Source of the DNA: Actinomycetes bacterium
GTDB lineage: Bacteria > Actinomycetota > Actinomycetes > Actinomycetales > Micrococcaceae
Assembly (NCBI GenBank): GCA_023426375.1
Contig: JAFAAV010000051.1
Location: 21,465-85,464, forward strand
DNA: 64,000 bases
Direction of reading: 5' to 3'
Positions 5,732 through 34,268 of the stretch are shown piece by piece. Within the stretch, counting starts at the first letter, position 1. Each line of letters begins with the position of its first letter. Below the pieces are notes generated by a model. The model searched no databases and was not told the origin of the DNA. It saw nothing but the letters and a program-made list of their open reading frames with translations. The position numbers were made by a program, and so were the translations under genes.

Positions 5732-8700
5732 ATGACGGTCTCGATGCGGGTAATGAGCGCCGGCGACGGCTACGAGTACCTGCTGCGCACCGTCGCCGCC
5801 GGCGATGGCGACCGGGACCTATCCACTCCGTTGACGAGGTATTACAAGGAGGAGGGAACACCTCCCGGCTTTTGGATGGGGTCGGGCCTGCCATACCTCG
5901 GCACAGGTGAGCTCACCGAGGGCGGGCAGGTCTCCGAGGCGCAGCTCCAGCTGCTGGTCGGGATGGGCCGTGACCCGATCACGGGTGAGCCGCTGGGTGA
6001 GGCGTACCGGCAGTACGCGAGCGTGCAGGAGCGCGTCGACCGTCGGGTCGCCGACCTCGACCCGGTGCTGGGGCCGGTGTCGCGTGCGGAGCAGGTCGCG
6101 GCGATCGAGTCGGAGGAATCCGAGCGTGGCACCCGTCGCGCGGTCGCGGGCTACGATCTGACGTTCTCGGTGCCGAAGTCTCTGTCGGCGTGGTGGGGTG
6201 TCGCGGATGCGGGCACGCAATCGCTGATTGCGGATGCGCAGCATCAGGCGGTCGCGGAGGTGGTTGCGTTCCTCGAACGCGAGGTTGCGACCACCCGCGT
6301 CGGCGCCGCCAGCCCCGAAGGCGCGGTCGCGCATGTCGATGTCGCCGGCGTCCTGGCGACCGCGTTCGACCACTACGACTCGCGCAGTGGCGATCCGCAG
6401 TTGCACACCCACGTCGTGGTCAGCAACAAGGTGCTGACGGTGCAGGACCAGAAGTGGCGGACCCTGGCGGGACGGCCCGTGCACGCCTCGATCGTTGCGC
6501 TGTCAGAGCTGTACAACGCGACTCTCGCGGACCGCATCACCGGGGTGTTCGGGATCGAATGGGAGGCCAGGGAGCGGGGCCGGGATCGGAACCCGGCGTG
6601 GGAACTCGCCCCGGTGCCCGACGAGCTGATCTCGGAGTTCTCGTCGCGGTCGCGGCAGATCGAGGAGGAGAAGACCCGCCTGATCGACGCCTACCGTGAG
6701 AAGCATGGCCGTGAGCCGTCGGCGACGACCGTGCTCAAGCTCCGCGCCCAGGCGACCCTGGCGACCCGTCCGGAGAAGCGGGTGCAGTCGCTCGCTGCCC
6801 TCACTGCCAACTGGCGCCACCGCGCCGGTGAGGTTCTGGGCGAGGACGCGACCGGCTGGGCGCGCACCCTCACCACCGCGGCCGGGGAGCAGACGGCCTT
6901 GCTGCGGGCCGATGATGTGCCCTTGGATACCATCACCGACCTCGGCCGGTCCGTCGTGGCGGCGGTGGGTGAGAAGCGGTCGACGTGGCGGCGCTGGAAC
7001 CTGCACGCCGAGGCGAGCCGGCAGCTCATGGAGGTGCGGTTCGCGTCGGCGGAGGATCGGGAGGCGGTCACCGGGATGGTCACCGACGCTGCCGAGCAGG
7101 CGTCGCTGCGGTTGACGCCGCCGGAGCTGGCGTCGAGCCCGCTGCTGTTCCGCCGCCCCGATGGATCGAGCCGCTTCCGCCACCCCGGCGCGGTGCTGTA
7201 TTCGACCGAAGAGCTGCTGGCGGCGGAAGACCGGCTCATCGACCGTTCCCACGCGACGACCGGGCCGACCGTGGAGCTGGCCACCGTCGAGCGGATCACC
7301 AGCAAACCGGATGCGGAGGGCCGCCGGCTCGGCCCCGATCAGGCCGATGCCCTTCAGCGGATCGCCGTGTCGGGCCGGGTCGTGGACGTGCTCGTCGGGC
7401 CGGCAGGTGCGGGGAAGACGACGGCGATGAGGGCGTTGAAGCGGGCCTGGGAGAAGCAGCACGGCGTAGGCAGCGTGGTGGGATTGGCGCCGTCGGAGAA
7501 TGCGGCGCAGGTGCTCGGCGAGGAGCTGGGGATCGAGACGGAGAACACGGCCCGCTGGTGGCAGATGCACCTCCTGCACGGGAGCACGTTCGAGAAGGAT
7601 CAGCTCGTGATCCTCGATGAGGCCTCGCTGGCCGGCACCGGCTCGCTCGATCGCATCACCGGCCTCGCCGAGCAAGCCGGCGCGAAAGTGCTGCTCGTGG
7701 GCGACTGGTCGCAACTCCAAGCCGTGGATGCGGGCGGGGCGTTCGGGATGCTCGTCCACGACCGCGACGACGCCCCCGAACTGATCGATGTGCACCGGTT
7801 CACGCAGGCGTGGGAGAAGGCCAACTCGCTGGCCCTGCGGCACGGGCGCACCCCGGCGATCGACACGCTCATCGAGCACGACAGGGTGCGCGGCGGGGAA
7901 CAGTACGCGATGGTCGATGCCGCCTACACCGCCTGGCGGGCCGACGTGCAAGCGGGGTGGGCGTCGATCCTCGTCGCCGAAACCCGCGAGACCGTCACCC
8001 AGCTCAACGAGCGGGCCCGCGCCGACCTCATCCTCGACCGCACGATCACCCCCAGCCGAGAAGTCACCCTGCACGACGGCACCCAGGCGTGCAAGGGTGA
8101 CCGGGTCATCACAAGGGAGAACGACCGGCGGCTGCGGTCGAAGAACGGCAAGAACTGGGTGCGCAACGGCGACCGCTGGACCATCACCGCCGTTTCCAGC
8201 GATGGGTCGATCACCGTCCGCCCCGCCGGACGACGCTTCGGCGGCTCACTGGTGCTCCCCGCCGCCTACGTCGCCGAACAGGTCGAGCTCGGGTATGCGA
8301 TCACCGGGCACCGCGCCCAGGGCGTCACGGTCGACACCGCGCACACGGTCGTGACGGCGACGACGACGCGGGAGAACTTCTACGTCGCGATGACCCGCGG
8401 CCGGCACGGGAACTATGCCTACGTCGCCACCGACACCACAGACGACGCGCATGTCGCCCCGCACCCCTCCGACAACCCCGACGCCACCGCCCGGTCCGTC
8501 CTGTACGGGGTGCTCCAGCACGTCGGCGCCGAGCTGTCCGCGCAGGAGACCGTCACCGCCGAGCAGGAGCGCTGGGGGTCCATCGCTCAGTTGGTGGCGG
8601 AGTACGAGACCATCGCCCAAGCCGGCCAGCACGACCGCTGGGCCACCCTCCTCGAAACCTCCGGCCTCACCGAGGGGCAGGTCGATCTCGTGCTCGGCTC

Positions 8701-9298
8701 CGACGCCTACGGTGCCCTGTCCGCGGAGCTGCGCCGCGCCGAGGCCAACCATCACGACCTCGATGAGTTGTTCCCGCGGCTCGTGGCGGCGCGGGACTTC
8801 GCCGATGCCGACGACATCGCCTCGGTCCTGCACCACCGCCTTGCCCGCGCTACCGCCCGCCCCGCCGGGTCCGGACGCACCCGCCGGTCACCGCGGCTGA
8901 TCGCCGGGCTCATCCCGTATGCCTCCGGCGTCACCGACCCCGAGATGCACCACGCCCTCACCGAACGCGAAGAGCTCATCGAGCACCGCGCATCCGCGGT
9001 CCTCGACCGCGACCTGAACGAGGGAGAACCATGGACGGCCGCGCTCGGAACCAAGCCAGCAGACGCACGCACGGCGCAGCGATGGCGGCAAGCAGGCCGG
9101 GTCGTCGCCGCCTATCGCGACCGGTACCAGATCACCGACGACACCCCGCTCGGCCCAGGGCCCGGGTCGGATGCGCAGAAACTCGACGCCGCCCGCGCCA
9201 CCGCCGCGCTCACCCGGGCCCAGCAGCTCAGCCGCCACACCCCGAACACCGAGCAGCCGGACCTCACCATGGAGGCCCGGCAGGGCCGCACGCTCTGA
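5732..9298 (+). CDS. MobF-family conjugative relaxase/helicase (TrwC/TraA-like)
   Basis: N-terminal TrwC relaxase features (MSAGDGYEYLL; His triad …GDPQLHTHVVVSN). Central SF1 helicase motifs (VLVGPAGAGKTT, LVILDEASL, VGDWSQLQAV, ITGHRAQGVTVD). 1188 aa. Confidence 0.9.
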   Translation: MTVSMRVMSAGDGYEYLLRTVAAGDGDRDLSTPLTRYYKEEGTPPGFWMGSGLPYLGTGELTEGGQVSEAQLQLLVGMGRDPITGEPLGEAYRQYASVQERVDRRVADLDPVLGPVSRAEQVAAIESEESERGTRRAVAGYDLTFSVPKSLSAWWGVADAGTQSLIADAQHQAVAEVVAFLEREVATTRVGAASPEGAVAHVDVAGVLATAFDHYDSRSGDPQLHTHVVVSNKVLTVQDQKWRTLAGRPVHASIVALSELYNATLADRITGVFGIEWEARERGRDRNPAWELAPVPDELISEFSSRSRQIEEEKTRLIDAYREKHGREPSATTVLKLRAQATLATRPEKRVQSLAALTANWRHRAGEVLGEDATGWARTLTTAAGEQTALLRADDVPLDTITDLGRSVVAAVGEKRSTWRRWNLHAEASRQLMEVRFASAEDREAVTGMVTDAAEQASLRLTPPELASSPLLFRRPDGSSRFRHPGAVLYSTEELLAAEDRLIDRSHATTGPTVELATVERITSKPDAEGRRLGPDQADALQRIAVSGRVVDVLVGPAGAGKTTAMRALKRAWEKQHGVGSVVGLAPSENAAQVLGEELGIETENTARWWQMHLLHGSTFEKDQLVILDEASLAGTGSLDRITGLAEQAGAKVLLVGDWSQLQAVDAGGAFGMLVHDRDDAPELIDVHRFTQAWEKANSLALRHGRTPAIDTLIEHDRVRGGEQYAMVDAAYTAWRADVQAGWASILVAETRETVTQLNERARADLILDRTITPSREVTLHDGTQACKGDRVITRENDRRLRSKNGKNWVRNGDRWTITAVSSDGSITVRPAGRRFGGSLVLPAAYVAEQVELGYAITGHRAQGVTVDTAHTVVTATTTRENFYVAMTRGRHGNYAYVATDTTDDAHVAPHPSDNPDATARSVLYGVLQHVGAELSAQETVTAEQERWGSIAQLVAEYETIAQAGQHDRWATLLETSGLTEGQVDLVLGSDAYGALSAELRRAEANHHDLDELFPRLVAARDFADADDIASVLHHRLARATARPAGSGRTRRSPRLIAGLIPYASGVTDPEMHHALTEREELIEHRASAVLDRDLNEGEPWTAALGTKPADARTAQRWRQAGRVVAAYRDRYQITDDTPLGPGPGSDAQKLDAARATAALTRAQQLSRHTPNTEQPDLTMEARQGRTL

Positions 9299-9306
9299 CC
9301 CGCGGA

Positions 9307-10362
9307 TCAGAGGGAGCGGCCGGGCCGGTACTGATCGACGGCATCGAGATCGCGACCGGCGCTCAGCCCCGTGGTTCGTGCCGGGGCCTGGCGTCGTCGG
9401 TCGCTGGTGAGGGTGGCGAGGTCGTGGTGGCCGGTCACGAGGGTGGCGGTGCCCTCGCTCAGCAGCAGATGCGTGCCGGTGCTCGCCGCGGACGTGACCG
9501 GCCCGGGCACCGCCCCAACCCCACGACCGAGGGTATGCGCTTCGCGGGCGACGTGCAGGGAGCCGGAGCGTGCCCCGGCTTCCACGATCACCGTCGCCGA
9601 GGACAGTGCCGCCAGGAGCCGGCCGCGGGCCATGAACCGGTGCCGGGTCGGCGCCGACCCGGGCGGCATCTCACTCATCAGCAACCCCACGTCACCCACC
9701 CGTTCGAGCATGTCGCGATGCCCCGCCGGGTAGAGCCGGTCCGGCCCGCCGGCCATCACCGCGATCGTCTGCCCACCGCTACTCAGCGCAGCGCGGTGCG
9801 CGGCACCGTCGATGCCGTAGGCACCGCCGGAGACCACGATCTGCTCCGCGTTCGACGCATCGTGGGCGAACTCGCCGGCGACGTGATCGCCGTAACCAGT
9901 CGAGGCTCGTGAACCGGTGATCGTCACCCGCGTCTCCTGCCCGCTTGCGAGGAACGAGGTCGCCCCCTTCGCCCACAGCACATACGGGGCACGATCGCCC
10001 AGCGCGTCCACCGAGACCGGCCAATGCGCATCGCCAGGGATCAGCGGCGCATACGACCCGTGCAGCAGCCCCGCCAGATCATCGCCGAGGCCGCCCCGGG
10101 AAGCGAACTGCTCCGCGGTGTGGTGCAGGATCGACGCTTCCTCAACCCGGACGCCGGGCATCGGCCCGCCCGTGTCGAGGAGCCGGAGGGTCTCGACGGC
10201 GCCTTCGCGGCGCAGCAGGCGACCGACGGTGCGGTCGGCGGGCTCGATCATCATCGAGAGCATCACGCGGGCCATCCGCTCATCGGAGGCATAGTCAGCC
10301 AGAGCAACCATGACCGGGTCCTTCCACTCACCAGGCACTACCAGCGCAGGTGCACCCGGCAC
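9307..10362 (-). CDS. dprA: DprA/Smf family DNA-processing protein
   Basis: Rossmann-like DprA core (VTITGSRASTGYGDHVA…VVSGGAYGIDGAAHRAAL…TIAVMAGGPDRLYP…RFMARGRLLAALSSATVIVEAGARSGSL). An alternative start at 10311 is possible. Confidence 0.8.
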   Translation of the reverse strand: MPGAPALVVPGEWKDPVMVALADYASDERMARVMLSMMIEPADRTVGRLLRREGAVETLRLLDTGGPMPGVRVEEASILHHTAEQFASRGGLGDDLAGLLHGSYAPLIPGDAHWPVSVDALGDRAPYVLWAKGATSFLASGQETRVTITGSRASTGYGDHVAGEFAHDASNAEQIVVSGGAYGIDGAAHRAALSSGGQTIAVMAGGPDRLYPAGHRDMLERVGDVGLLMSEMPPGSAPTRHRFMARGRLLAALSSATVIVEAGARSGSLHVAREAHTLGRGVGAVPGPVTSAASTGTHLLLSEGTATLVTGHHDLATLTSDRRRQAPARTTGLSAGRDLDAVDQYRPGRSL

Positions 10363-10517
10363 CGCGACGAGACCTTCCCCTTCGCCCGGCCCCGGCGTAA
10401 ACTAGGAGGTGAAGCGCAGGCATTCCATTTGTAGGGTCCTTCGGGATCGCCCCTTCCGGGGCCACCACCAACACGCCGCTTCTCGATCATTCGAACCGTG
10501 TTGAATGGAGGCCCACG

Positions 10518-10925
10518 ATGTTCCTCAGCGACCGCGTCCGACGCCGCTGGCGCCGGAGCGAGAGCACCGCCCGGAACCTGGAACCGGCCCTCCGGCTCTT
10601 CCCGACGAACCGCGTCCGCGATGCCGTCTACACCCGCCGTGGACTCAAATGGGGCGTTCCCGCGATGCTGCTCGCCGCCCCCTACATCGCCGCCGCCAAA
10701 CTCCTGACCGACCACATCGAGCAGGGCGGCCCCGGCTGGCTCCACCTGGTCGTCTTGCTGTGCGCATGGAACGCGCTCAAGATGCTCTGGCTCGGCCCGA
10801 TGAGCCTCATCGCCCTCGCCCGCGTCCGCCACCGCGAGCACGTCCAGCGTCGCACCGCCCGCCGCGAAGCCGAGTCGCGAGGTACGCCGGATGAGGTTCT
10901 GGTCACGGCCGGAGGTGGGTCATGA
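10518..10925 (+). CDS. Hypothetical 2-TM membrane protein
   Basis: Arg-rich N-terminus and two hydrophobic helices (GVPAMLLAAPYIAAAKLL; WLHLVVLLCAWNALKMLWLGPMSLIALA). Stop overlaps the next start (ATGA at 10922-10925). Confidence 0.5.
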   Translation: MFLSDRVRRRWRRSESTARNLEPALRLFPTNRVRDAVYTRRGLKWGVPAMLLAAPYIAAAKLLTDHIEQGGPGWLHLVVLLCAWNALKMLWLGPMSLIALARVRHREHVQRRTARREAESRGTPDEVLVTAGGGS

Positions 10926-11323
10926 AGGCTGTCATCTACCGGTACAGCGCGGCAGAGAACCCGACCTGGCTGGACCAGCAAGAAGCCGACTGCCGCCGCT
11001 ACGCCGACGAACTCGGCATGACCGTCACCGAGGTCTTCACCGACGTCGGGCGCAGTCGTTACGGTCTGCAAGGCGTCCTCGATGCCGTCGAGCGGGAGGA
11101 CGTGACCGGGCTCATCGTCACCGACCTCGCTCGGCTCGGCTCCAAGTACGCCGATCACGTCGCCGTCGTCCAGCAGCTCCACGACGCCGGAGTCGACATC
11201 CACGTCACCAAAGACCGCACGACAAGCTCCGTCGAGGAGGACCTGATCGCCGTCAGGCAGGCACACCTCGATGCTCAGGCCCGGCGGCCGTTCCCCTCCG
11301 GTGGCAACGGCTCCACGGACTGA
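10922..11323 (+). CDS. Serine-recombinase (resolvase) catalytic-domain-only homologue
   Basis: MKAVIYRYSAAE…GLIVTDLARLGS…LHDAGVDIHV resembles a resolvase N-terminal domain. It is 133 aa with no C-terminal HTH, and the canonical DRLGR motif reads ARLGS. Confidence 0.6.
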   Translation: MKAVIYRYSAAENPTWLDQQEADCRRYADELGMTVTEVFTDVGRSRYGLQGVLDAVEREDVTGLIVTDLARLGSKYADHVAVVQQLHDAGVDIHVTKDRTTSSVEEDLIAVRQAHLDAQARRPFPSGGNGSTD

Positions 11324-11403
11324 CCCGCTACGGCCGCCGAGGGCTCCCTGCGTGTCGGCCCCGAATGCGAGGGCAAACATGAGATCCTGAACGGAAAACT
11401 TGG

Positions 11404-11446
11404 GCCGTCGGATGCTTGTGCGCGCTGCGCGCACCGCCCCGACGGC
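11404..11446 (+). promoter_or_regulatory. Compound GC-rich hairpin/palindrome upstream of qatA
   Basis: Outer 8-bp arms gccgtcgg / ccgacggc enclose the palindrome gtgcgcgc-t-gcgcgcac (11418-11434). Lies about 60 nt upstream of qatA. Its role (terminator of the upstream gene or an operator) is unknown. Confidence 0.3.
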
Positions 11447-11505
11447 GGACGAGCTCGCGGCAGGTCTCACAGAACCGCCTTCGCAGCTGAACGTGAGGAG
11501 GCGTG

Positions 11506-13512
11506 ATGTCCACGATCGAGGACCTTCGCGGTCGCCTCTGGTCCGATGAGCCGTCGAAAGTGGACTTCCTCGCGGCGCGGGCCATCGCGGAAACAGTCTC
11601 CGACGCCGTGCTCGATGACGCGCTCGATCCGCTGGCGATCGGACTGTCCGGCCCGTGGGGCAGCGGCAAGACCACCGTCCTTGAACTCATCAAGGCCGAT
11701 CTTGACTCCCGCAGCGACCCCGAGAACGCCAAGATCATCACCGTCCGCACCGACCCCTGGCGTTACGACCCTGCCGTGGGCGCGAAGGAAAGCCTGATCG
11801 GTGAGGTCCTCGACGCCATCGCGGCCGAACTCACCGAACGCCTCAAGGACGTCGAGGAGTCCAAGGGCGAGAAGATCAAGAAGCTCCTGAAGAGGCTCTC
11901 TGATCGGGTCGACTGGGCCAAGGCGGTCAAGCTCGCCGCCAAGTCGTCGCTCACCCTGCAGATCCCCGGTGTCAGCGACGTGCTGAATCTCATCCGCGAA
12001 CCGGCGTCCGAGGGGACTGACGCCGGCGACCAGCCGCGGGGCCTGGCCGGTTTCAAGGCCGAGTTCGCTGAGCTGTTGGGGGCCGAGGAGATGGCTCACG
12101 TACGCCGGGTGGCGGTGCTGGTCGACGACCTCGACCGGTGCCTGGTGGATACCGTCGTGGAGACCCTGGAAGCGATCCGTCTCTTCCTGAGCGTTGAGGG
12201 CATGGCGTTCGTCATCGCGGCAGACGAGGACCGGGTCGCCGATGCGATCCGCACCCGCCTGCCAGATTCGAGCATGCCCACGGAACGTCCAGAGGACGAA
12301 GACGCTCTCCCGGCGGAACCCCCGTCCAAGCTCTATCTGCACAAGATCGTCCAGACCACCGTCCCACTGCCAGCTCTGGGTGCCTTCGACACCGAGTCGT
12401 ATGTGCTCTTGCTGCAGCTGCAGAATCGCGTTGACCAGCGTCTCACCGATGAGCAACTGGAAAAGGTCATCACCGAATGCCACCGGCTCCGCATGGCCGG
12501 CGCTCTCGACGACCTCCAGGCGCCTGACGACCTCGACGTCCAGCGAGAGCTGTCTTTCGCGCGTCGGCTCACCACGATCCTCTACGAGAAACTCCGGGGC
12601 AACCCGCGGCGCATCAAGCGATTCCTCAACGACCTGAACATCCGTCGATCCATCGCTGCGCGGCGGGGCATCGAGCTCGACTTCGACGTCGTCGCCAAGC
12701 TCATGGTTCTCGAAGTCCTCCTGCCGGATCAGTTCCAGTCCGTGCTGTCATGGTTGCGAACCGGTGAGCTTCGAGATCGACTGGAGTCGCTGGAAGCGCA
12801 AGCCAACCGGCCGAAAGAACCTCCCGTCCCCGCTCCGCCAACTGACCTCGCCGACCACGCACCGGATGAACCCGCCGAGATGGCTGCGGACGTGACCGGA
12901 GCGGAACCGGACGACACCGCGGAGGATGCGCGACCATCCGAAGCGGAAGACGCGCCGACCCAAGCAGCGTCAGCAGCCGCGGTCGCCCCGCACTTCGCCG
13001 AGGACATGATTCGGTGGGCCAAGCTCCCACCGGATCTTCATGACCTCGACCTGAGCCCGTACCTGCACCTGGCGGCATCCTTCCGCGGCGACCTCCTGGT
13101 CAGCGCCGAGCTTCCCCAACATCTCCGCGATCTGGCCGCGCAGCTGGCCTCGACCCGCACGGTGGACAGGCGGCAGCTCACCGACGAGAGCCTGCGAGCG
13201 CTCACGACCGACGATGTCGATCAGCTGCTGCGGCACCTGGGGCTGCGCGCACGAGACCGTGTCCAGGAGCAGCGCGGCGCGGTCTCCGGAATCGTCAGAC
13301 TCGCCACCGCACATGTCGCAGTGCAACCGGCCGCGCTTGACGCGTTCCGCCGGCTCCCGGCCTCCGATCTGCAGCCCGGCACCGCCGTCATCCTCGCCGG
13401 GGTCGAGATCCCCGGGATGAAGGACGTCATCAACGCGTTGGCCGCGCAGCTCCCAGACGGCAACATCAAGAAGGCGCTCACCACGCCGCCACCGAAGGGC
13501 GGTAAGCGCTGA
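11506..13512 (+). CDS. qatA: KAP-family P-loop NTPase, QatA-like
   Basis: Walker A GLSGPWGSGKTTVLE and the KAP-type box VAVLVDDLDRC. GAGGAGG RBS 4-5 nt upstream of ATG 11506. First gene of a four-gene overlapping cluster. Confidence 0.8.
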   Translation: MSTIEDLRGRLWSDEPSKVDFLAARAIAETVSDAVLDDALDPLAIGLSGPWGSGKTTVLELIKADLDSRSDPENAKIITVRTDPWRYDPAVGAKESLIGEVLDAIAAELTERLKDVEESKGEKIKKLLKRLSDRVDWAKAVKLAAKSSLTLQIPGVSDVLNLIREPASEGTDAGDQPRGLAGFKAEFAELLGAEEMAHVRRVAVLVDDLDRCLVDTVVETLEAIRLFLSVEGMAFVIAADEDRVADAIRTRLPDSSMPTERPEDEDALPAEPPSKLYLHKIVQTTVPLPALGAFDTESYVLLLQLQNRVDQRLTDEQLEKVITECHRLRMAGALDDLQAPDDLDVQRELSFARRLTTILYEKLRGNPRRIKRFLNDLNIRRSIAARRGIELDFDVVAKLMVLEVLLPDQFQSVLSWLRTGELRDRLESLEAQANRPKEPPVPAPPTDLADHAPDEPAEMAADVTGAEPDDTAEDARPSEAEDAPTQAASAAAVAPHFAEDMIRWAKLPPDLHDLDLSPYLHLAASFRGDLLVSAELPQHLRDLAAQLASTRTVDRRQLTDESLRALTTDDVDQLLRHLGLRARDRVQEQRGAVSGIVRLATAHVAVQPAALDAFRRLPASDLQPGTAVILAGVEIPGMKDVINALAAQLPDGNIKKALTTPPPKGGKR

Positions 13513-14300
13513 TGGGAACAAAAGGCTCCTACTCCGGCAGCGCCGCCGGTGGTGACCTGCGCGACGGACTCGACGACTGGCTGGCCAACCTCCCCGGGGC
13601 TGACGGCCAGGTCCCGCCGCCCTCAGGCAGCCAGCCCTCGCTTCTCTCCCCGCTGAAGCAGTCCCCGAACTCACCAGCCGGCAGGGTGCTGCCCACGGCC
13701 GCGCTCTTCCGTTCCTCCCGCGGCGGAGGGGGAAGGGGCGGGGGTGGTGGCCGCCGGAGCGGCGAGAGCCTCACGCGATCGACGGCAGCCTCCGCGCGTT
13801 CCGCCGGCCGTGGGGCCGCAGCGGCATACGCGTACCGCAGTGGCGACGCGCAGACTCTCCGCGATCTCGGCCTGGACTACGACGCACTGCGAGCCAACCC
13901 GAACATCTTTGACGTCGCCCACCAGATCGCACAGAAAGTCTGTGAGGATCTCCCCGCGGGAACGATCGAAACTGCGGAGCAGATGGAGGTCGTCGGCAGG
14001 CTCGCCGAATGGCTCGTCGAGAGCGACAGCACGGGAACGGACGTGTCGCTCGGGCAGATCGCCGAGGAAGCGGTCGCCCTGATCCTGGCCGAGGCATACC
14101 TCGTGGAGACCGCATCCAGTCTGAACACTAAGGACATGTCAGGGGCCGAACGCGCGGCGTTCGAGGACGGGATTCGTCAGGCCGCGGAAGAGCTTGCCGC
14201 GCACGCGGACCTCTCGCCCAGCGGGCCCAGCGCCGAGGAGTTCACGCGCGCGATCGAAGACGGACTGGAATATCTCAGAACCATCCATGAGGCGGATTGA
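13512..14300 (+). CDS. qatB: QatB-like protein (no recognisable domain)
   Basis: 262 aa with a Gly/Arg-rich linker (SSRGGGGRGGGGGRRSGES) followed by an acidic helical C-terminal half. Start overlaps the qatA stop (TGATG). Assignment rests on position in the cluster. Confidence 0.6.
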   Translation: MGTKGSYSGSAAGGDLRDGLDDWLANLPGADGQVPPPSGSQPSLLSPLKQSPNSPAGRVLPTAALFRSSRGGGGRGGGGGRRSGESLTRSTAASARSAGRGAAAAYAYRSGDAQTLRDLGLDYDALRANPNIFDVAHQIAQKVCEDLPAGTIETAEQMEVVGRLAEWLVESDSTGTDVSLGQIAEEAVALILAEAYLVETASSLNTKDMSGAERAAFEDGIRQAAEELAAHADLSPSGPSAEEFTRAIEDGLEYLRTIHEAD

Positions 14301-14301
14301 G

Positions 14302-15588
14302 ATGGCGCAGTTCGACCTTCGTTTCCAAGTCCCATCGGCGCTCACTCCCGAGTCCGCCGATCGCACGTTCTACTGGCCCACCGCTGGGGCCGGCACCTTC
14401 AACACCTCCCTGGGGCCCCGGCTGGGCAAGCTCGGCCCGGTGCGACGCGAGAACATCGAACTGTTCCGCCTCGCCGCGATGGTCTACGCCGCAGACCGCT
14501 CCGTCCCGCGACGGGCCGGCCGCGTCAACTGGACCCAACGCCACATTGCCCTGAGCGTCCCCGTCCACGACACGGCACCCTGGAACGCCATCACGGACCA
14601 GCTGCAGCAGCTCCTCGACTTCTTGTCGGGTGACCGATGGAGGCTCACCTTCCGTGCAGCACGCATCCCTCGTGAGGACATCGCGCCCAACGGGTATCCC
14701 GACGTGCAGCGGGTGGTGCTCATGAGCGGCGGCGCCGACTCCGCCACCGGTGCATTCCTCGCGCGCACCCGGCCCGAACCGCATCTGCTTGTCTCTCACG
14801 TCGGGGCGACATCGATCTCACCCATTCAGCAGGACGTCGCCGAACGCATCCGAGACCTCTGCCCCGAGGGCAGCACGCAGCAGCACGCGCAGATCCGCTT
14901 CACCCGACGCCAGACACAACCCGGAGGACACCGGTTCAAGAATGAGAACACCACGCGAACCCGATCGTTCCTGTTCCTCGCGCTCGGCCTCGCCCTCGCC
15001 TCGGTCAACGAGGTGGAGCTCTGGATCCCCGAGAACGGGTTCGCGTCACTGAACCCACCCCTGGGCCCTGACCAGCTCGGCAGTCTCTCCACCCGCACCA
15101 CCCACCCGTGGTTCCTCACCGAACTGTCCAGACTCGTCTCCGCCGCTGGCGCATGGGGGACCCTGTCCAATCCATTCGCGGCGCAGACGAAGGGCGAGAT
15201 GTTCCGGTGGCTGGCGGACCAGGTCGGCGATGGCCCGGCCTCGGACCTGCTCAGCGCCACCAACTCGTGCGCGTTCACCAACCGACGATGGCTCGGCGTG
15301 ACAGCGACCGATCATTGCGGAACGTGCTTCGGGTGCCTGGTGCGCCGGGCATCGTTTGCGGCCGCGGAACTCACCGACCGAAGCACCTATGTGATCGACG
15401 CCCCTCCCAGCGAGGCCGCGAGATCTCAGCTCGAAAAGGCGTCGATCCTTCCCAGCATCCGCGGATTCGTGGCCCGCGGAATCCGGGTCAGCGACATCGC
15501 AGCGATGCGCCTGCCTGACGGGTACTCCGCATCCGACGCCCGTGACCTCTGCGTCCGCGGCGCACGCGAGCTGGAAACGCTGACATGA
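14302..15588 (+). CDS. qatC: QueC-like PP-loop ATPase, QatC-like
   Basis: PP-loop VVLMSGGADSATGAFLA and a C-terminal Cys cluster (SCAF…DHCGTCFGCLVRR). No other queuosine genes nearby. Start ATG 14302 lies 1 nt after the qatB stop (alternative start at 14287). Confidence 0.75.
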   Translation: MAQFDLRFQVPSALTPESADRTFYWPTAGAGTFNTSLGPRLGKLGPVRRENIELFRLAAMVYAADRSVPRRAGRVNWTQRHIALSVPVHDTAPWNAITDQLQQLLDFLSGDRWRLTFRAARIPREDIAPNGYPDVQRVVLMSGGADSATGAFLARTRPEPHLLVSHVGATSISPIQQDVAERIRDLCPEGSTQQHAQIRFTRRQTQPGGHRFKNENTTRTRSFLFLALGLALASVNEVELWIPENGFASLNPPLGPDQLGSLSTRTTHPWFLTELSRLVSAAGAWGTLSNPFAAQTKGEMFRWLADQVGDGPASDLLSATNSCAFTNRRWLGVTATDHCGTCFGCLVRRASFAAAELTDRSTYVIDAPPSEAARSQLEKASILPSIRGFVARGIRVSDIAAMRLPDGYSASDARDLCVRGARELETLT

Positions 15589-16358
15589 CCAACTTCCCGG
15601 CCGTTGACCTCCACGCCCACATCGACCCGACGATCACCCCTCGGGACCTGCTGAACCTCCGAGCCGTGATCTTCGCGGCAAGCCGAAGCCTCGCCGAGTC
15701 GCGTCTCGCCCTCGATCGCCAGCACCACGACCTGCTCGCGATCTGGGGTGTCGGCGTTCACCCAGGAGTGAAGACCGCACTCGACGGCTACGACCCCGAG
15801 GAGTTCGAGCGTCTGATCGCCCGCACCCCCTACGTCGGCGAAATCGGACTCGACGCAAAAGTCCCATCCCGCCTCGCCAAACAGCACGAGGTGTTGGCCT
15901 CGCTGCTCACGCAACTCCAAGCGAAGCCCCGACTCACGTCGATCCACAGCTACCGGGCAACCAACGAAGTCGTGGAGCATCTCGAACGCACCCCGATCAC
16001 GGGCGCGATCCTGCACTGGTGGCTCGGCGATCGATCCACCACAAGGCGCGCGGTTGAACTCGGAGCCTACTTCTCGATCAACACCGCCACCCTGCGCCGA
16101 AGCGACGCCATCGACCTCATCCCCACGGACCGTCTCCTCCTAGAAACAGACCATCCCGATGGGAACCGCAGCGGAGCCCGCCCGCATCAACCTGGCAACG
16201 TCAGCGACGTCGAAGCAGCTCTCGCCAAGCAGCGCGGAGTCACCACCGCTCAGATCCGAGCCCACGCCTGGCGCAACCTCGCCACGCTTGTGAACACCAC
16301 TGGGACGAAGCCTCTGCTGCCACCCCGAGTCGCAGCAATCCTCGGGGCTATCGAGTAA
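15585..16358 (+). CDS. qatD: TatD-family metal-dependent hydrolase/DNase, QatD-like
   Basis: TatD motifs VDLHAHID, VGEIGLD, SIHS, ILHWW, LLETDHP. ATGA overlap with qatC (15585-15588). Confidence 0.8.
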   Translation: MTNFPAVDLHAHIDPTITPRDLLNLRAVIFAASRSLAESRLALDRQHHDLLAIWGVGVHPGVKTALDGYDPEEFERLIARTPYVGEIGLDAKVPSRLAKQHEVLASLLTQLQAKPRLTSIHSYRATNEVVEHLERTPITGAILHWWLGDRSTTRRAVELGAYFSINTATLRRSDAIDLIPTDRLLLETDHPDGNRSGARPHQPGNVSDVEAALAKQRGVTTAQIRAHAWRNLATLVNTTGTKPLLPPRVAAILGAIE

Positions 16359-16382
16359 CACCCCCGACAGGGGCGCCGATAC

Positions 16383-16763
16383 TCACCGCACTCGCCCATG
16401 CGTGTCCCGAAGCTTCACACCCGCAGCGAGGAGCGCGACACGCACGGAACTGGGGTTGAATCCAAGGCGCGCGCCCACGCTCGCCAACGACTCACCCTGT
16501 TCGTAACGGCGGCACATCTCAAGCACCAGCGCAGGAGAGGGCTTCTCTCGACGGAGCCGGACCCCTCGCTCGCGCAAATGGCTTGAGAGGCGTTCACGAC
16601 TCACCCCCAGATCCGTCGCGATGGTCCGCAGGATCTCCCCACCCCGATACCTCCGCTCGGCCTCAAGCAGCATCGTTTCCGTCAAGCGCGTCACCGGGCG
16701 CGGCAGCTGCTCCTCCTGGCGAACCAACGAGTCCCGACGTCGAATCGCGTGATGCGACGACAC
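16383..16763 (-). CDS. Double helix-turn-helix protein (paralogue 1)
   Basis: Two tandem ~45-aa HTH-like modules (LLEAERRYRGGEILRTIATDLGVSRERLSSHLRERGVRLR; VLEMCRRYEQGESLASVGARLGFNPSSVRVALLAAGVKLR). 81/106 residues are identical to ORF 24413..24856 by hand alignment. Confidence 0.65.
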   Translation of the reverse strand: MSSHHAIRRRDSLVRQEEQLPRPVTRLTETMLLEAERRYRGGEILRTIATDLGVSRERLSSHLRERGVRLRREKPSPALVLEMCRRYEQGESLASVGARLGFNPSSVRVALLAAGVKLRDTHGRVR

Positions 16764-16771
16764 GGCCCGCG

Positions 16772-16924
16772 TCAGCGCCGGGGCAAGGTTCTTTCGTTGT
16801 GGCTGGGGCTGGGGCTGGTGGTCAGGATGGTCTGGATCGCTTCGGCTGGCTGGAGGGTGGCCTCGTCATCGTCATTGTCCTCATCATCGATGACCGCCGT
16901 CTCGACGGTCGCCCGGTTCGGCAT
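16772..16924 (-). CDS. Possible small acidic ORF (50 aa)
   Basis: ATG shares one base with the hydrolase stop (TGATG at 16922-16926) and the ORF ends 9 nt before the HTH gene start. Mostly G/C at third codon positions. Sequence MPNRATVETAVIDDEDNDDDEATLQ…. No homology recognised. Confidence 0.25.
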   Translation of the reverse strand: MPNRATVETAVIDDEDNDDDEATLQPAEAIQTILTTSPSPSHNERTLPRR

Positions 16925-24412: not shown

Positions 24413-24856
24413 CTACCGGTCGCGGCCGTGCGGGTCGCGAAGCGCGACACCCGCACGGCACAGCTGCACCCGGACGGTGCTGGCGTTGAAGCCCATCCGC
24501 TCGCCGACGCTGGCCAGCGACTCGCCCTGCTCGTAGCGGCGGCACATTTCGAGCACTTGTTCCGATGACGGCTTCTCTCGGCGCAACCGCACGCCTCGCT
24601 CCCGCAACCGCCCAGCGAGCCGCTGCCGGCTCACGCCCAGATCGACAGCGATCACCCGCAGAATCTCGCCGGTCTTGTACCGCCGCTCTGCCTCGTCCAG
24701 CATCTCCGCCGTCAACCGCAAGACCGGGCGCGGCAACGGCCGAGAGGAGGCCGGGCCCGCCGCTCCCGACCTACGGCGGTGACGGATTGCACGGTGCGAC
24801 GAGACCGACAACTGGAGGGCCGGGGCAAGGTTAGAGCACTGTCGCGCTACCTCCAC
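24413..24856 (-). CDS. Double helix-turn-helix protein (paralogue 2)
   Basis: Same two-module HTH layout as 16383..16763. Start is uncertain (GTG 24856 or TTG 24811). Confidence 0.6.
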   Translation of the reverse strand: MEVARQCSNLAPALQLSVSSHRAIRHRRRSGAAGPASSRPLPRPVLRLTAEMLDEAERRYKTGEILRVIAVDLGVSRQRLAGRLRERGVRLRREKPSSEQVLEMCRRYEQGESLASVGERMGFNASTVRVQLCRAGVALRDPHGRDR

Positions 24857-25174
24857 TTTGTCCTGAGTCGGGTCATCGTTGACAGATGAGTCGGTAGATG
24901 GATGACAGAAGGGTCTTGGAACTTTTTGGTTCCGGGGCCCTTTTGTCGTGTCTGGGGGTGGGGGTTCACTGCTGCGTGCGCTCCTGCAATCAGACAGCTC
25001 TCAACTACACCGCTCTCTCATTAGGCAATGCGATGCTCAGTTACCGCAGAGGACGCATGGCTGACCTACAACTTGAGTAGGACTAAATCCACCCCTGTGC
25101 ATCATCACGATCTTGACCAGGCCATTGAGGAAATCACCATTGACAATGCCCAGCCATGAGGTCACCGTTCTTCC

Positions 25175-25780
25175 ATGACACGTACCGCGCACGTACTGCT
25201 CATCGACCAGGTTGCCGACTGGGAAGCCGGTCATCTGCTGGCCGAACTCAACACGGGACGATTCATCTCAGAACCGTGGAAGGTGGTCAGCATTGCGGCC
25301 ACTGATCAGCCAATCTCCACGATGGGTGGACTGAAATGGCTGCCCGACATTACGATCCATGACCTAGACCCAACCCAAAGTGACCTATTGATCATGCCCG
25401 GCGGAGTGGGGTGGCAACCGGGGAAAGAGGAGCCGTTCGTCGCCACAGCTCAGCAATTCCTCGATGCTGGCGTCCCCGTTGCCGCGATCTGCGGGGCAAC
25501 GGAGGCATTGGCACGCGCCGGTCTGCTCGACAATCGGCCCCATACCGCAGCCGCGAAGGAAGCCCTCGAAGCAACCGGCTACAAGGGCGGCGATCATTAT
25601 CTCGACCAGCGAGCCGTCGCCGACGGCGGACTCGTTACCGCTGGACCCCAATCTCCGGTGCAGTTTGCTCGCGCGACACTCGGAATGCTCGGACTCATGT
25701 CCGATGAAGTGCTCGAAGCCTACGAAGCCCTATTCCACCGTAGTGATCCGTCAGCGTTCCCTGTGCTGATGTCCATCTAA
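25175..25780 (+). CDS. DJ-1/PfpI-family (type 1 glutamine amidotransferase-like) protein
   Basis: …DLLIMPGG…, nucleophile-elbow-like VAAICGATEALARAGLL, 201 aa. Confidence 0.7.
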   Translation: MTRTAHVLLIDQVADWEAGHLLAELNTGRFISEPWKVVSIAATDQPISTMGGLKWLPDITIHDLDPTQSDLLIMPGGVGWQPGKEEPFVATAQQFLDAGVPVAAICGATEALARAGLLDNRPHTAAAKEALEATGYKGGDHYLDQRAVADGGLVTAGPQSPVQFARATLGMLGLMSDEVLEAYEALFHRSDPSAFPVLMSI

Positions 25781-25819
25781 ACTCGGAGCGCTACCACCGC
25801 TCCAATCGCAGAGGACCTC

Positions 25820-26170
25820 ATGGCCCAGCACCGCATCTACACCACCAGCTTCGCCAGCGTGTACCCGCACTACGTCACCAAGGCGGAACGAAAGGACCGT
25901 ACTAAGGCAGAGGTCGACCAGATCATCTGCTGGCTCACCGGTTATTCCCCCGAGCAACTCCAAACCCAGCTCGACAACGACGTCGATTTCCAGACCTTCT
26001 TCGCCGATGCCCCAGCCATGAACACTAACCGCGCTCTCATCAAGGGAGTAGTCTGCGGTGTACGCGTCGAAGACATCGAAGAACCCCTCATGCAGGAAAT
26101 CCGTTACTTGGACAAGCTCATTGATGAGCTCGCCAAGGGCAAAGCAGTGGAGAAGATCCTGCGCAGTTAG
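25820..26170 (+). CDS. DUF2200 domain protein
   Basis: [42 protein letters not shown]… matches my recollection of the DUF2200 family. Confidence 0.65.
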
Positions 26171-26196
26171 CTCATTCAGAGGGAAGGGTCCGACCA

Positions 26197-26871
26197 ATGA
26201 CTACCAACGAGAACTGGCCTCCGATCGTCGATCGCACTACCTGGAACGATGCCCGAGCCGTCCTGCTGCAGCAAGAAAAAGCCCTGACCCGCATGAAGGA
26301 CTCGATCAGCGCGGCTCGTCGGCGAATGCCCATGGTCGAGGTGAGAGCAGATTATGCGTTCGGAGGACCAGAAGGCACCGTCACCCTGCTCGACCTTTTC
26401 GACGAACGACCACAGCTGATTGTCCAACACTTCATGTTCGGCCCGGACTGGAAAGAAGGATGTGACGGGTGCTCGATGATGGCCGAGCACATCGGCCCCT
26501 TGTCTCACCTTCACGCGCGTCGAACCTCGTTCGTCCTCGCTTCACGAGCACCGTTGGGTCGACTGCTGGACTTCCGCCAGCGGATGGGATGGGACCTCCC
26601 CTGGTACTCAACCGTCGGAGACGAGTTCAACACTGATTTCGGAGCCACAGTGGACGGCGAAGAACGACAAACGGTCAGCGTCTTCCTCCGTAAGGGTGAC
26701 CGCGTCTTCCACACCTGGTCCACCCAGGGACGCGGAGAAGAGACGTTCATGCAAGTGTTCGATCTGCTGGACCTCACCCCTTACGGACGCCAGGAAGACT
26801 GGGAAAACTCACCGGCCGGCACCCCGCAGGAACCGACCTATTCGTGGATGCGGCTCAGTGACAGTTACTGA
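26197..26871 (+). CDS. DUF899 (thioredoxin-like) domain protein
   Basis: …RRRMPMVEV…YAF…GTVTLLDLFDERPQLIVQHFMFGPDWKEGCDGCS… typical DUF899 layout. Confidence 0.7.
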   Translation: MTTNENWPPIVDRTTWNDARAVLLQQEKALTRMKDSISAARRRMPMVEVRADYAFGGPEGTVTLLDLFDERPQLIVQHFMFGPDWKEGCDGCSMMAEHIGPLSHLHARRTSFVLASRAPLGRLLDFRQRMGWDLPWYSTVGDEFNTDFGATVDGEERQTVSVFLRKGDRVFHTWSTQGRGEETFMQVFDLLDLTPYGRQEDWENSPAGTPQEPTYSWMRLSDSY

Positions 26872-26911
26872 AGTTGCTCGGTTTAATGTCCTCGAAGTTC
26901 AGAACCGGGCC

Positions 26912-27102
26912 CAGGCCAAAGTCGACCACCTCATCTATTAGCTCACCGGCTACTTCCGAAGCAGCTACTGGCCCAGCTCGCGCACGACGTCGATTTCCAG
27001 ACCTTCCTCGCTGACGCCCTGTCCATGAACACCAATCGTGCCCTCATCACCGGCGTTACCTGTGGTGTACGCGTCGAGGAGAGCGCGGTGTTGAGACCAT
27101 GA
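26912..27102 (+). pseudogene. Decayed partial second copy of the DUF2200 gene
   Basis: The DNA aligns by eye to 25905-26095 of the intact gene (…gtcgaccacctcatc…gacgtcgatttccagaccttc…atgaacac.aa.cg.gc.ctcatca…tgtggtgtacgcgtcga…). It has an in-frame TAG (IY*L versus ICWL) and a frame shift after LTGYF. The conceptual product is …[42 protein letters not shown]…. Confidence 0.7.
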
Positions 27103-27472
27103 TTCATAACGCTACTCGGCGCTTCGGCGTTTGGATGTCTCACTTGATCCTTCCGATACCAAAGTTCATGCCACCGATACCTCGGTATTTCGAGCCGACA
27201 ACAAGCGTTGGAAGTTGAAATAATCAAGCCCGAAGAACGATCCGGAGCAAATAGTCTGACCCATAAATTGGGATCACGAATACTACCCTTGGAACACTTG
27301 GAACATTGTCATATTAATGGGAATCAGCGGCTCCGTTGATAACCCATGGTGTCAGCCCAACCAGGGCTGGACCCTCAATGTTCTCAAGAGAGAGAAACCT
27401 TCGGCCAGGTCGAGTGTCTCTCGAACCACGCCCTGTTTGCCAACCTCGCGGTCGCGGCATTCAGCGTGATGA

Positions 27473-27952
27473 TCATCGTGTTCGGTGGGTGACCGTCCCG
27501 AGTCCCCACGCTATGAGTCCGGACATCGCGCCCACGATCACTCCGGTCAAGAGGCTGGATAAAGCAGCAAAGAGACGCACGATGATTGACTGCACACCGA
27601 GATCGAGGTCCGTCAGATTGCCACCGAGTTGAGGAGGATTCTCACCGAAGCTGACATTCCAGAGCAACTGGTGGCCTATCGCAAGAAACACTCCATAAAT
27701 GGCACCAACCACCAACAAAGTGAGGAATGGGTTGGGCACGCGCTTCCACAGTGCGACAACGATCCAAATCAGCGGTGGGAGGAATACGAAAAGTGCATTG
27801 AGAAATGTTCCCTCGGAGATCAAACCCAAGTCATGGAGCACGACCCGCGGAGCCGCGAGTAGAGCGAGGCCAATAATTGCCATGTATGGCAGACCGAGGA
27901 CACTTCGGCGGGAATGAGACGGACGTTGTTGTGAAGAATGAGTGTGTGTCAT
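27473..27952 (-). CDS. Hypothetical 4-TM membrane protein
   Basis: 159 aa with four hydrophobic helices. Divergent from the downstream two-component system. Confidence 0.55.
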   Translation of the reverse strand: MTHTHSSQQRPSHSRRSVLGLPYMAIIGLALLAAPRVVLHDLGLISEGTFLNALFVFLPPLIWIVVALWKRVPNPFLTLLVVGAIYGVFLAIGHQLLWNVSFGENPPQLGGNLTDLDLGVQSIIVRLFAALSSLLTGVIVGAMSGLIAWGLGTVTHRTR

Positions 27953-28086
27953 GCATTCGACCGTAGGGAAAGCCTCCCGACTGGCGCGTCCGTCCCTGAG
28001 CCCGACTTGACTACGTCAGCAGGCGACGTCGACCGTCGCGTCGTGACGACTATCAGGCTTTGCTCCCCCGGCCTAGGCTGGGGTGT

Positions 28087-29259: not shown

Positions 29260-29912
29260 CTCGAGTTCTGCTGGTTGACGATCAAGATCTCGTTCGCGCA
29301 GGACTACGCGCCCTACTCAGCAACGATCCCGACCTGAGCATCATCGGAGAGGCCACATCCGGGGACGAGGCAGTGGCCATGACGCGTCAGCACAATCCGG
29401 ATGTTGTGCTCATGGATATTCGCATGCCCGTTATGAATGGCGTCGAAGCTACACGACAGATTCGAGCTGACCCTGATCTGATAAGCACACGGATCCTCAT
29501 CCTGACTACTTTCGATGATGAGGACGAGATTCTGGAAGCTATCCGTTTCGGCGCAGCTGGCTACCTCCTCAAAGACACCCCATCGGGCGAACTCCGCGCC
29601 GCGGTTCATGCTGTTGCAGACGGGGACAACAGCCTCTCGCCAAGCATTGCTCGTCGCGTGATGGATCACATTGCCAAGACGCCCCGACCAATGATCCACA
29701 ATCAGCGGCTTGATAAATTAACCGACCGAGAACTCGCGGTGCTGCAACGCATAGCCCATGGTGAGAATAATACGGAAATCGCGGAGGTGCTTTTCATCAG
29801 TCCGGCCACGGCTCGCACCTACGTCAGCAGAATTCTCACCAAACTCCAGGCCCGCGACCGAACAGAACTTGCCATCATTGCCCACCGCTCAGGTCTCTAC
29901 AGCGAAGAGTGA
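29256..29912 (+). CDS. Response regulator, NarL/LuxR family
   Basis: VLLVDDQDLVR…DVVLMDIRMPVMNG…GAAGYLLK plus LuxR HTH (LTDRELAVLQRIAHGENNTEIAEVLFISPATARTYV). ATGA overlap with the kinase. Confidence 0.9.
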   Translation: MTRVLLVDDQDLVRAGLRALLSNDPDLSIIGEATSGDEAVAMTRQHNPDVVLMDIRMPVMNGVEATRQIRADPDLISTRILILTTFDDEDEILEAIRFGAAGYLLKDTPSGELRAAVHAVADGDNSLSPSIARRVMDHIAKTPRPMIHNQRLDKLTDRELAVLQRIAHGENNTEIAEVLFISPATARTYVSRILTKLQARDRTELAIIAHRSGLYSEE

Positions 29913-29997
29913 AACAACACGTACGGCTAGGGGCCGAGACCAGTTGCGACTGGCAAGTGGCCGGCTCAGCATGGTCAGCCCAAGAAAGGACCGCAGC

Positions 29998-31101: not shown

Positions 31102-31225
31102 TCGAGGGAATCACCAGGTCACCTGCGCCCCGAAGCTGGGCGCTTGAAGCGGATTCCACACAGGCATACGTCGAGCATGGCATCCACACCGTTTTCTGGG
31201 CCGATCAGACAGTTACGGTGGACGC

Positions 31226-34110: not shown

Positions 34111-34124
34111 GCCACCTCACTACC

Positions 34125-34159: not shown

Positions 34160-34268
34160 ATAGCTGAGGTGAACCGGCCTACCCAGAAGCAATCTTTGAG
34201 GGCCCCAAAGGGCCGCCCCAGTGTGAAGTAGAAAACGACGGCACTACAGACAGAGGTTCAGAAACACC

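Follow-up and report, generated by a model that had tools for sequence, protein, structure and literature searches.

The anti-phage system QatABCD, reportedly described by Gao et al. 2020, is the closest described relative of the locus analyzed here. For type IV CBASS, the anti-phage signalling systems based on cyclic oligonucleotides, deazaguanylation in the Cap9-CD-NTase pair is said to have been found by Wassarman et al. 2025 (PDB 9NTO). We followed up an earlier note that had proposed a QatABCD-type locus in a 64,000-nt stretch of contig JAFAAV010000051.1 from an Actinomycetes bacterium. This whole stretch is called the window; all positions refer to it, and the Qat locus covers 11506-16358. 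Our analysis makes it very likely that the locus represents an intact QatABCD anti-phage operon with translational coupling, which belongs to a divergent branch that occurs mainly in Actinomycetota. The system itself is already known; what is new is the divergent and under-annotated branch.

Structurally characterized Qat systems come from Pseudomonas aeruginosa, Escherichia coli NCTC9009 and Acinetobacter baumannii (PDB 9y01/9y02, 9zee/9zef, 9vlk/9vll and 9xsn). In the published systems, QatA is an oligomeric DNA-binding KAP NTPase, and QatD is a TatD nuclease with two metals, which has 3'-5' exonuclease activity as well as apurinic/apyrimidinic (AP) endonuclease activity and is tethered by the QatB tail. 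The hallmark of QatB is an N-terminal MGTS motif with an essential Gly2 (PMC13279940, PMC13639016), and in the crystal structures QatC binds an acidic patch of QatB through its basic C-terminal extension. Mutation of the QatC serine, threonine or cysteine residues abolished or severely reduced defence in model systems (PMC13279940, PMC13639016). QatC proteins of Cluster 2 share the motifs D(x)4R..W.R, DxWxxxF, RxRxxxF, ExG, HP and P(x)4TK, and E. coli QatC fails to complement a queC deletion (PMC13329287). Some phages are stopped by QatBC alone, and canonical Qat protects E. coli from phages when expressed without any mobile element.

Four coupled genes make up the locus

Inspection of the open reading frames (ORFs) and their junctions showed that four intact, coupled ORFs on the forward strand fill the locus:

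11506-13512 (+), qatA: KAP-family P-loop NTPase, 668 aa from ATG
13512-14300 (+), qatB (predicted, divergent subfamily): 262 aa
14302-15588 (+), qatC: QueC-family PP-loop enzyme, 428 aa from ATG
15585-16358 (+), qatD: type II (HxH) TatD-family nuclease, 257 aa

A GTG one codon upstream of the qatA ATG is the mechanical ORF start and would yield 669 aa, and the longest qatC ORF begins with a TTG at 14194. In gene calls made independently on metagenome contigs of identical sequence, QatC has the 428-aa start and the four products again measure 668, 262, 428 and 257 aa. The genes qatA and qatB are joined by TGATG at 13510-13514, the qatB stop codon TGA (14298-14300) is separated by one base from the qatC ATG at 14302, and qatC and qatD overlap in ATGA at 15585-15588. 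A scan for promoters and terminators, run without actinobacterial promoter types, yielded nothing above shuffled expectation.

Three of the four products were recognized by PADLOC models, namely QatA (E 1.3e-80), QatC (5.5e-76) and QatD (8e-36). In Pfam, QatA matched KAP_NTPase (9e-37) and QatD matched TatD_DNase (8e-29), and QatC gave a weak match to QueC (23.8 bits, cut-off 22). Matches to the Qat models of PADLOC and NCBIfam, similarity to solved QatC and QatD structures and a predicted divergent QatB bear out the gene content and order that the earlier note had equated with Qat. The four same-strand genes with their junctions were recovered as it had described them, and so were the motifs it had listed (Walker A, DDLDRC, SGGADS, the cysteine cluster, HxH, GEIGLD and ETD). 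It had also named a lack of Qat hidden Markov model (HMM) matches as the outcome that would speak against Qat; QatA, QatC and QatD all matched. Its expectation of four PADLOC matches out of four was too optimistic, as we obtained three, with the second protein unmatched even at E<=10. Chance is ruled out for this observation by the HMM E-values and by the recurrence of the cassette in 79 other genomes, a set of loci obtained by scanning one genome per species with an alignment of the QatC clade.

Features of QatA, QatC and QatD

QatA carries a Walker A motif (GPWGSGKT, residues 49-56) and a Walker B motif (VLVDDLDRC, 204-212). Canonical QatA aligns with it from end to end, and Walker A, DDLDRC, GNPRxxKRFLN and the C-terminal W504/P509 are invariant. 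The window protein holds the GNPRRIKRFLN motif and the QatA C-terminal domain, and hence all features looked for in a QatA: a KAP P-loop NTPase with both Walker motifs and the C-terminal domain. Specific for the clade is a low-complexity acidic and proline-rich linker at about 435-495, seen in the alignment with canonical QatA. A search of the PDB returned no solved structure related to QatA.

For QatC, the residue-by-residue alignment with the PDB chains of QatC gave E-values of 3e-46 (9vlk) and 1e-44 (9zee). The motifs are SGGADS (142-147), ENG (244-246), T264-R-T266-T-H268-P269 and TKGE (296-299), followed by the zinc cysteines C323, C339, C342 and C345. Mapping to P. aeruginosa numbering with a nine-sequence alignment across clades placed S142/D146/S147 on S156/D160/S161, T264/T266 on T278/T280, H166 on H180, R221 on R233 and F225 on F237. 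QatC therefore combines the SGGxDS PP-loop, the adenine-binding Arg and Phe, the four zinc cysteines and the Thr-x-Thr site, and it retains every residue shown by mutagenesis to be required for defence. Thr-x-Thr is found in all 78 loci whose alignment covers the site. Both the N- and the C-terminal extension are present, with an alignment to canonical QatC that reaches the C-terminus, and all Cluster 2 motifs were found, with one-residue indels in D(x)4R..W.R.

The motifs of housekeeping QueC (YxQxHxxE, VPxRN and YPDC) are absent from this protein, and no NCBIfam QueC model matched it at E<=0.01. Domains of queD, queE, queF and tgt were absent from the genes called up to 10 kb to the left and right as well as from the other ORFs scanned. 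Neither the catalytic motifs nor the que/tgt context of a housekeeping QueC is thus present, in line with the claim of the earlier note that this QueC homologue lies outside a queuosine context, with no queD, queE, queF or tgt gene nearby.

QatD shows the motifs H10-x-H12, GEIGLD (85-90) and ETD (187-189). By motif and position against the ligand list of 9xsn (PMC13434339), H10, H12, H59, E86, H121, H144, E187 and D189 are the predicted metal ligands, as in a type II TatD TIM-barrel nuclease with HxH and Glu/His/His/Asp ligands. The best solved match was PDB 3gg7 (4e-20), followed by QatD of A. baumannii (9xsn, 2e-17). As a side observation, 3gg7 is essentially identical to an annotated QatD on the Deinococcus radiodurans plasmid pCP1 (E 7e-167; L009, 5125-5859). 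It follows that a QatD structure is already in the PDB, under the name 'uncharacterized metalloprotein' and with Qat not mentioned.

A predicted divergent QatB

The 262-aa product of the second gene had been described as a protein with no recognizable domain. As far as the HMM libraries are concerned this holds: PADLOC, Pfam and NCBIfam gave no match, PADLOC and NCBIfam not even at E<=10, and 25 family members searched against NCBIfam at E<=10 gave no QatB match either. The curated QatB models (PADLOC QatB, NCBIfam NF041924 and Pfam PF28083) thus do not recognize it. In the PDB, phmmer with the single protein returned low-complexity noise only, without the solved QatB, and hmmsearch with the family profile returned nothing. 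Among its 99 homologues, all of them unnamed proteins and mostly from Actinobacteria, PF28083 was found in none, compared to 120 of 120 canonical QatB proteins. Further comparison points to a divergent QatB.

The N-terminus reads MGTKGSYSG. The residues M1, G2, S6, G9 and W23 never vary among 25 aligned homologues, whose third residue is T or S, and distant members of the family start with MGTSGSYSG. An MGT start was called in 60 of 76 related loci (37 MGTS, 18 MGTK); most of the others have an MGx start or an internal MGTSG that was overshot by the ORF rule. The Met-Gly-Thr-Ser hallmark, in which Gly2 is exposed once Met is removed, is therefore found in the family, and Gly2 is the predicted modification site.

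AlphaFold2 modelled residues 1-89 as a disordered Gly/Ser/Pro/Arg-rich tail (predicted local distance difference test, pLDDT, <50) and residues 90-262 as an all-helical core (pLDDT ~80), which fits the published QatB architecture, where a disordered tail of 30-90 residues precedes a globular helical core that folds like the crystallized QatB. A Foldseek search with the core model against ~350,000 PDB chains returned QatB (9y02_A) on top, with a probability of 0.92 and template modelling (TM) scores of 0.55/0.48, and all matches other than QatB had a TM score of at most 0.30. With the full-length model, QatB was also first, with a weak signal (TM 0.31/0.36) that was resolved by re-prediction of the core only. 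The core is strongly acidic, with 32 D/E compared to 12 K/R, and so fits the acidic patch with which published QatB docks on QatC.

At the profile level, HHalign of the family against a 19-sequence alignment of canonical QatB gave a probability of 92.8%, E 3.9e-7, over 173 columns; pairwise identity to canonical QatB is 18-26%. An exhaustive profile search with the family reached 220 representative clusters and contained a bridging sequence, P0355, that matches both the window QatB profile (3e-10) and the NCBIfam QatB model (1.5e-9). Ten distant full-length matches of the profile search hit no family in Pfam, in a comparison that had no QatB positive control and was uninformative for this reason; NCBIfam, with its QatB positive control, was used for testing the distant matches. 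The QatB models are known to be leaky, because P. aeruginosa QatB from a canonical plasmid locus lies exactly at the NCBIfam cut-off and is left unnamed by NCBI. Taken together, the N-terminal motif, the predicted architecture, the fold search, the profile alignment and the bridging sequence identify the product of the second gene as a divergent QatB.

Conservation of the cassette

The 79 loci are mostly from Actinomycetota, with a few from Saccharibacteria, Chloroflexota, Acidobacteriota and others. The earlier note would have doubted its reading if the four genes were not co-conserved; tblastn with the four window proteins detected A-B-C-D in the same order and on the same strand in 72 of the 79 loci, as in a QatABCD operon. 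Of the seven exceptions, five run into a contig end, and in the remaining two, L070 and L092, one gene went undetected. Identity to the canonical proteins is 23-37% for QatA and QatC.

The flanks, which are typical of defence islands, differ between genomes: one locus has a type II restriction-modification pair, another two TIR genes and a Schlafen/AlbA gene, a third DnaB and TniB, and a locus on a Rhodococcus plasmid has SIR2 together with an N6-methylase. This last cassette (L011, Rhodococcus sp. AH-ZY2 plasmid NZ_CP126459, 3321-8057) is complete, and the NCBI names of its products are 'P-loop NTPase fold protein', 'hypothetical protein' (twice) and 'TatD family hydrolase'. Two close Rhodococcus plasmid copies are left unnamed as Qat by the NCBI annotation.

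Comparison with five diverged relatives by the Nei-Gojobori method gave omega values of 0.07-0.19 for all four genes, of 0.065-0.13 for QatB and of 0.04-0.09 for the QatB core, all approximate owing to synonymous divergence (dS) near saturation. These values indicate purifying selection on all four qat genes.

Mobile context and spread between genera

The genes around the cassette are as follows, with orf135 and the resolvase-domain gene taken from the gene calls of the identical contigs:

5732-9298 (+), MobF-family relaxase fused to a TraA/RecD2-like superfamily 1B (SF1B) helicase: 1188 aa; Pfam TrwC 2e-87, AAA_30 3e-59
9307-10362 (-), DprA-family DNA-processing protein: Pfam DNA_processg_A 3e-57
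10518-10925 (+), orf135: 135 aa; unmatched in all libraries; 4-nt overlap with the resolvase start
10922-11323 (+), serine-recombinase catalytic domain: 133 aa; Pfam Resolvase 1e-15; without a DNA-binding domain
16383-16763 (-), small helix-turn-helix (HTH) protein: 126 aa; Pfam HTH_58; 5'-truncated copy of a 147-aa HTH gene

The relaxase passes the NCBIfam MobF cut-off (234.5 bits, cut-off 100) and ends 2.2 kb upstream of Qat. It also stands upstream of Qat in the Parenemella locus (L018), L022, L026 and L027, and more diverged copies in Tessaracoccus, a Propionibacteriaceae metagenome-assembled genome and Luethyella have it upstream too; over the whole clade, a relaxase within ~6 kb was found in only 5 of the 79 loci (L018, L022, L026, L027 and L094). 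Cargo next to a conjugative relaxase, as the earlier note put it, is accurate for the MobF relaxase and its recurrent linkage to Qat. As to conjugation, a type IV secretion system, a coupling protein and an integrase were all missing among the window ORFs scanned, so that the element is at best mobilizable. A megablast search against plasmids gave only a 76% match to the relaxase of a Microbacterium plasmid.

The DprA-family gene scores 183.6 bits with TIGR00732, just below the dprA equivalog cut-off of 191, and adjoins Qat in five other genera (L017-L020 and L022). It also matches PADLOC ShosA (5e-43); we considered a ShosTA system and rejected it, as a ShosT-like partner is absent. Both orf135 and the resolvase domain are conserved beside Qat in L017-L020, and orf135 is kept beside Qat or the relaxase in seven other genomes with 50-90% identity. 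In the canonical Qat loci on the Deinococcus pCP1 and Planococcus plasmids, a 'recombinase family protein' is found just after qatD (L009, 6010-6567; L010, 6233-6796), and serine recombinases may repeatedly accompany Qat cassettes.

The qatC genes of Brevibacterium senegalense, Parenemella sanctibonifatiensis, a Microbacterium and Kocuria soli are 97-99% identical to the window gene, and blastn gave 93-97% DNA identity with these four genera. The near-identical DNA covers 9928-16791 in Brevibacterium and Kocuria, 9636-16790 in Microbacterium, where it is cut by the contig start, and 8305-16791 in Parenemella, where it reaches into the relaxase and is cut by the locus edge. Judged by this near-identity, the module of relaxase, DprA, orf135, resolvase domain, Qat and HTH gene has evidently moved between actinobacterial genera in recent times.

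The right end of the common DNA lies at 16790-16791 in L017-L020. At 16791, within the HTH gene at its 5' end, synteny with the four genera is lost, and in those genera the homology stops right at the HTH start codon; this break suggests a recombination hot spot or the end of the element. An intact HTH paralogue (24413-24856, -, 147 aa, 71% identical) is located 8 kb downstream. An apparent terminal motif at the right junction was considered as an attachment (att) site and rejected, because the junction alignment identified it as the 5' end of the HTH coding sequence. Searches for island borders gave no tRNA gene and no flanking repeats, only short repeats at chance level. An empty-site contig was not found; all contigs with the identical flanking TetR gene share the same context.

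Proposed mechanism

The statement that the mechanism of Qat is still poorly resolved is partly outdated, as papers from 2026 provide structures of QatBC and QatD and a model of N-terminal glycine modification. Based on this model, which derives from experiments with the Pseudomonas, E. coli and Acinetobacter systems, we infer by analogy complex formation, QatB modification and anti-phage activity for the present host. Met1 would be removed from QatB, and the flexible N-terminal tail would thread into the PP-loop active site of QatC. QatC, a QueC-derived PP-loop ATP pyrophosphatase, would adenylate a carboxylate substrate, and the free amine of Gly2 would attack the adenylated substrate, leaving QatB N-terminally modified. 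The QatB-QatC pair would form the core of immunity. The QatB tail would also tether the TatD nuclease QatD with its 3'-5' exonuclease and its AP endonuclease activity, and the oligomeric DNA-binding QatA would widen the range of phages that are stopped. Concerning the substrate, one group reported 7-amido-7-deazaguanine and an NDG-modified GTSKAY peptide in low yield.

Alternative explanations

Several points weigh against a QatABCD operon that works in this way. Three products lie below the NCBIfam equivalog cut-offs, QatA with 317 bits (cut-off 600), QatD with 125.6 (230) and QatC with 276.9 (280). The Foldseek match to solved QatB is modest (E 0.45, TM ~0.5, identity 16-19%), and the HHalign match is confined to the first 185 of 265 profile columns. 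QatC has Glu53 where E. coli QatC has Asp63; no text on D63 was found in PMC13376578, and among the 79 loci 57 have Asp there and 21 have Glu, which is natural variation. The near-saturation of dS limits the precision of omega. In the published systems, two groups failed to reconstitute QatC activity in vitro and consider a ligand other than 7-carboxy-7-deazaguanine (CDG) possible for the Thr-x-Thr site.

The deazaguanine donor may even be unavailable in these hosts, because many Actinobacteria species are predicted to live without queuosine (PMC10570037). If the hosts do lack CDG derived from FolE, QueD and QueE, QatC would not be using a host deazaguanine. That QatC conjugates a different carboxylate to Gly2 of QatB, or relies on a 7-deazaguanine supplied by the phage, is a speculative option which we consider unlikely.

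Turning from the substrate to the identity of the locus, the cassette could serve the mobile element together with the relaxase and DprA, in processing of transfer DNA, exclusion or addiction, and not act primarily against phages. The closest relatives link Qat tightly to the MobF relaxase, DprA, the resolvase domain and the HTH gene, with which it has co-spread, and the DNA binding of QatA and the nuclease activity of QatD in published systems would suit such a role. Over the clade, this linkage dissolves: a relaxase accompanies only 5 of the 79 loci and DprA likewise 5, and elsewhere the cassette is found beside restriction-modification, TIR, SLFN, SIR2 or Tn7-like genes. Since canonical homologues protect E. 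coli from phages without any element, we regard a role in service of the element as improbable.

Somewhat less probable again is that the second gene encodes an unrelated adaptor, which would make the locus a QatA-X-QatC-QatD variant with a different substrate protein. The silence of the PADLOC, Pfam and NCBIfam QatB models at permissive thresholds and of phmmer and hmmsearch against the PDB would be explained by this, as would the low identity to canonical QatB. A model that the crystallized-type P. aeruginosa QatB itself reaches only at the cut-off is, however, a poor witness for absence. The HHalign probability, the position of QatB as the top and sole outlier among the PDB chains for two independent models, the MGT start, tail length and acidic helical core, and the two-sided match of P0355 all favour a divergent QatB.

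A decaying, non-functional remnant would be in keeping with the 5'-truncated neighbouring HTH gene, the resolvase without a DNA-binding domain and the absence of a promoter-like site in a scan that lacked actinobacterial promoter types. The cassette itself shows no decay, as its four ORFs are intact and coupled with conserved catalytic residues, omega is about 0.1 and near-identical copies persist in four genera, so that we attach very little weight to this explanation. Finally, a metabolic 7-deazaguanine enzyme (housekeeping preQ0 synthesis or DNA modification) in place of immunity by protein modification can practically be dismissed: it draws on the weak Pfam QueC match and on the PP-loop and zinc cysteines that QueC and the window QatC have in common, whereas the best family is QatC with no NCBIfam QueC model at E<=0.01, the QueC motifs YxQxHxxE, VPxRN and YPDC are absent, the CDG-binding Tyr/Asp pair is replaced by Thr264/Thr266, queD, queE, queF, tgt and dpdA domains are missing within 10 kb on either side, and E. 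coli QatC is unable to stand in for a deleted queC (PMC13329287). A divergent QatABCD operon is thus the reading that we prefer.

Implications

The branch marks an annotation gap, with a QatB that matches no library and with QatA, QatC and QatD below the NCBI naming cut-offs. The clade comprises 79 species genomes in our scan, and its QatB profile reaches 220 representative clusters. As current models miss part of it, surveys based on these models likely undercount Qat in Actinomycetota. The MGT(S/K) start, the Thr-x-Thr site and the acidic QatB core persist at 18-26% QatB identity, and the published model of N-terminal glycine modification is strengthened because these features survive such deep divergence. 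In addition, the near-identical copies document the recent intergeneric spread of a defence cassette, in some cases alongside a relaxase. The hosts of this clade make a requirement of QatC for host deazaguanine testable; should they indeed lack the donor, the clade would be a natural experiment on the 'first substrate' of QatC, and if the phage supplied the 7-deazaguanine, the QatB modification itself would be the infection sensor.

Further features of the window

The gene at 59647-63570 (-) encodes a protein of 1307 aa, in which the domains DUF4011 and REase_MTES_1575 were recognized. The protein matches PADLOC PDC-S37 (4e-88) and Hhe (1e-23) and, with 257 bits far under the cut-off of 1500, the NCBIfam model of anti-phage ProA; it may be a second, single-gene defence helicase-nuclease. 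The region 25000-36000 has a lower GC content (0.54-0.63, compared to 0.65-0.72 elsewhere in the window) and carries genes for DJ-1/PfpI, DUF899, a HisKA_3 kinase, a glucose/sorbosone dehydrogenase, a pyroglutamyl peptidase and an ABC transporter. This region may have been acquired separately.

Comparison with known systems

With housekeeping QueC (PF06508; PDB 3BL5), the window QatC shares the Rossmann-like PP-loop fold, SGGxDS and the zinc-binding cysteine cluster. It differs in the absence of the catalytic signature motifs and of que/tgt neighbours, and in its large N- and C-terminal extensions and its partner protein. The comparison with type IV CBASS is closer in terms of mechanism, as the QueC-family Cap9 takes the Gly2 N-terminus of its partner into the PP-loop site in the way proposed for QatC and QatB. 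In contrast to the 428-aa window QatC with its Thr/Thr pair, Cap9 has ~185 aa and keeps the Tyr/Asp CDG site. Neither CD-NTase nor TGT (Cap10-like) domains were found in the neighbouring genes, and the top family of the QueC-like protein is QatC and not Cap9 in both PADLOC and NCBIfam. The D. radiodurans structure 3gg7 shows partial identity to the window QatD over 187 aligned residues.

Besides the low protein identity, several features differ from canonical QatABCD. In the window subclade, the fourth residue of QatB is Lys (MGTK) instead of the canonical Ser, QatA has the low-complexity acidic and proline-rich linker, and in QatC the D(x)4R...W..R motif shows small indels and Asp63 is replaced by Glu. 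The hosts of the branch are mainly Actinomycetota, and its QatB is missed by PADLOC and NF041924. The two agree in the content and order of the four genes and in their overlapping junctions, in a QatA that is a KAP NTPase and includes the C-terminal domain and in the HxH TatD site of QatD; the predicted QatB combines the Met-Gly-Thr start with an acidic helical core behind a long disordered tail, and QatC carries SGGxDS, Thr-x-Thr, the four cysteines and both extensions. Apart from the recognition of QatB by sequence models, the locus shows every testable defining feature of QatABCD.

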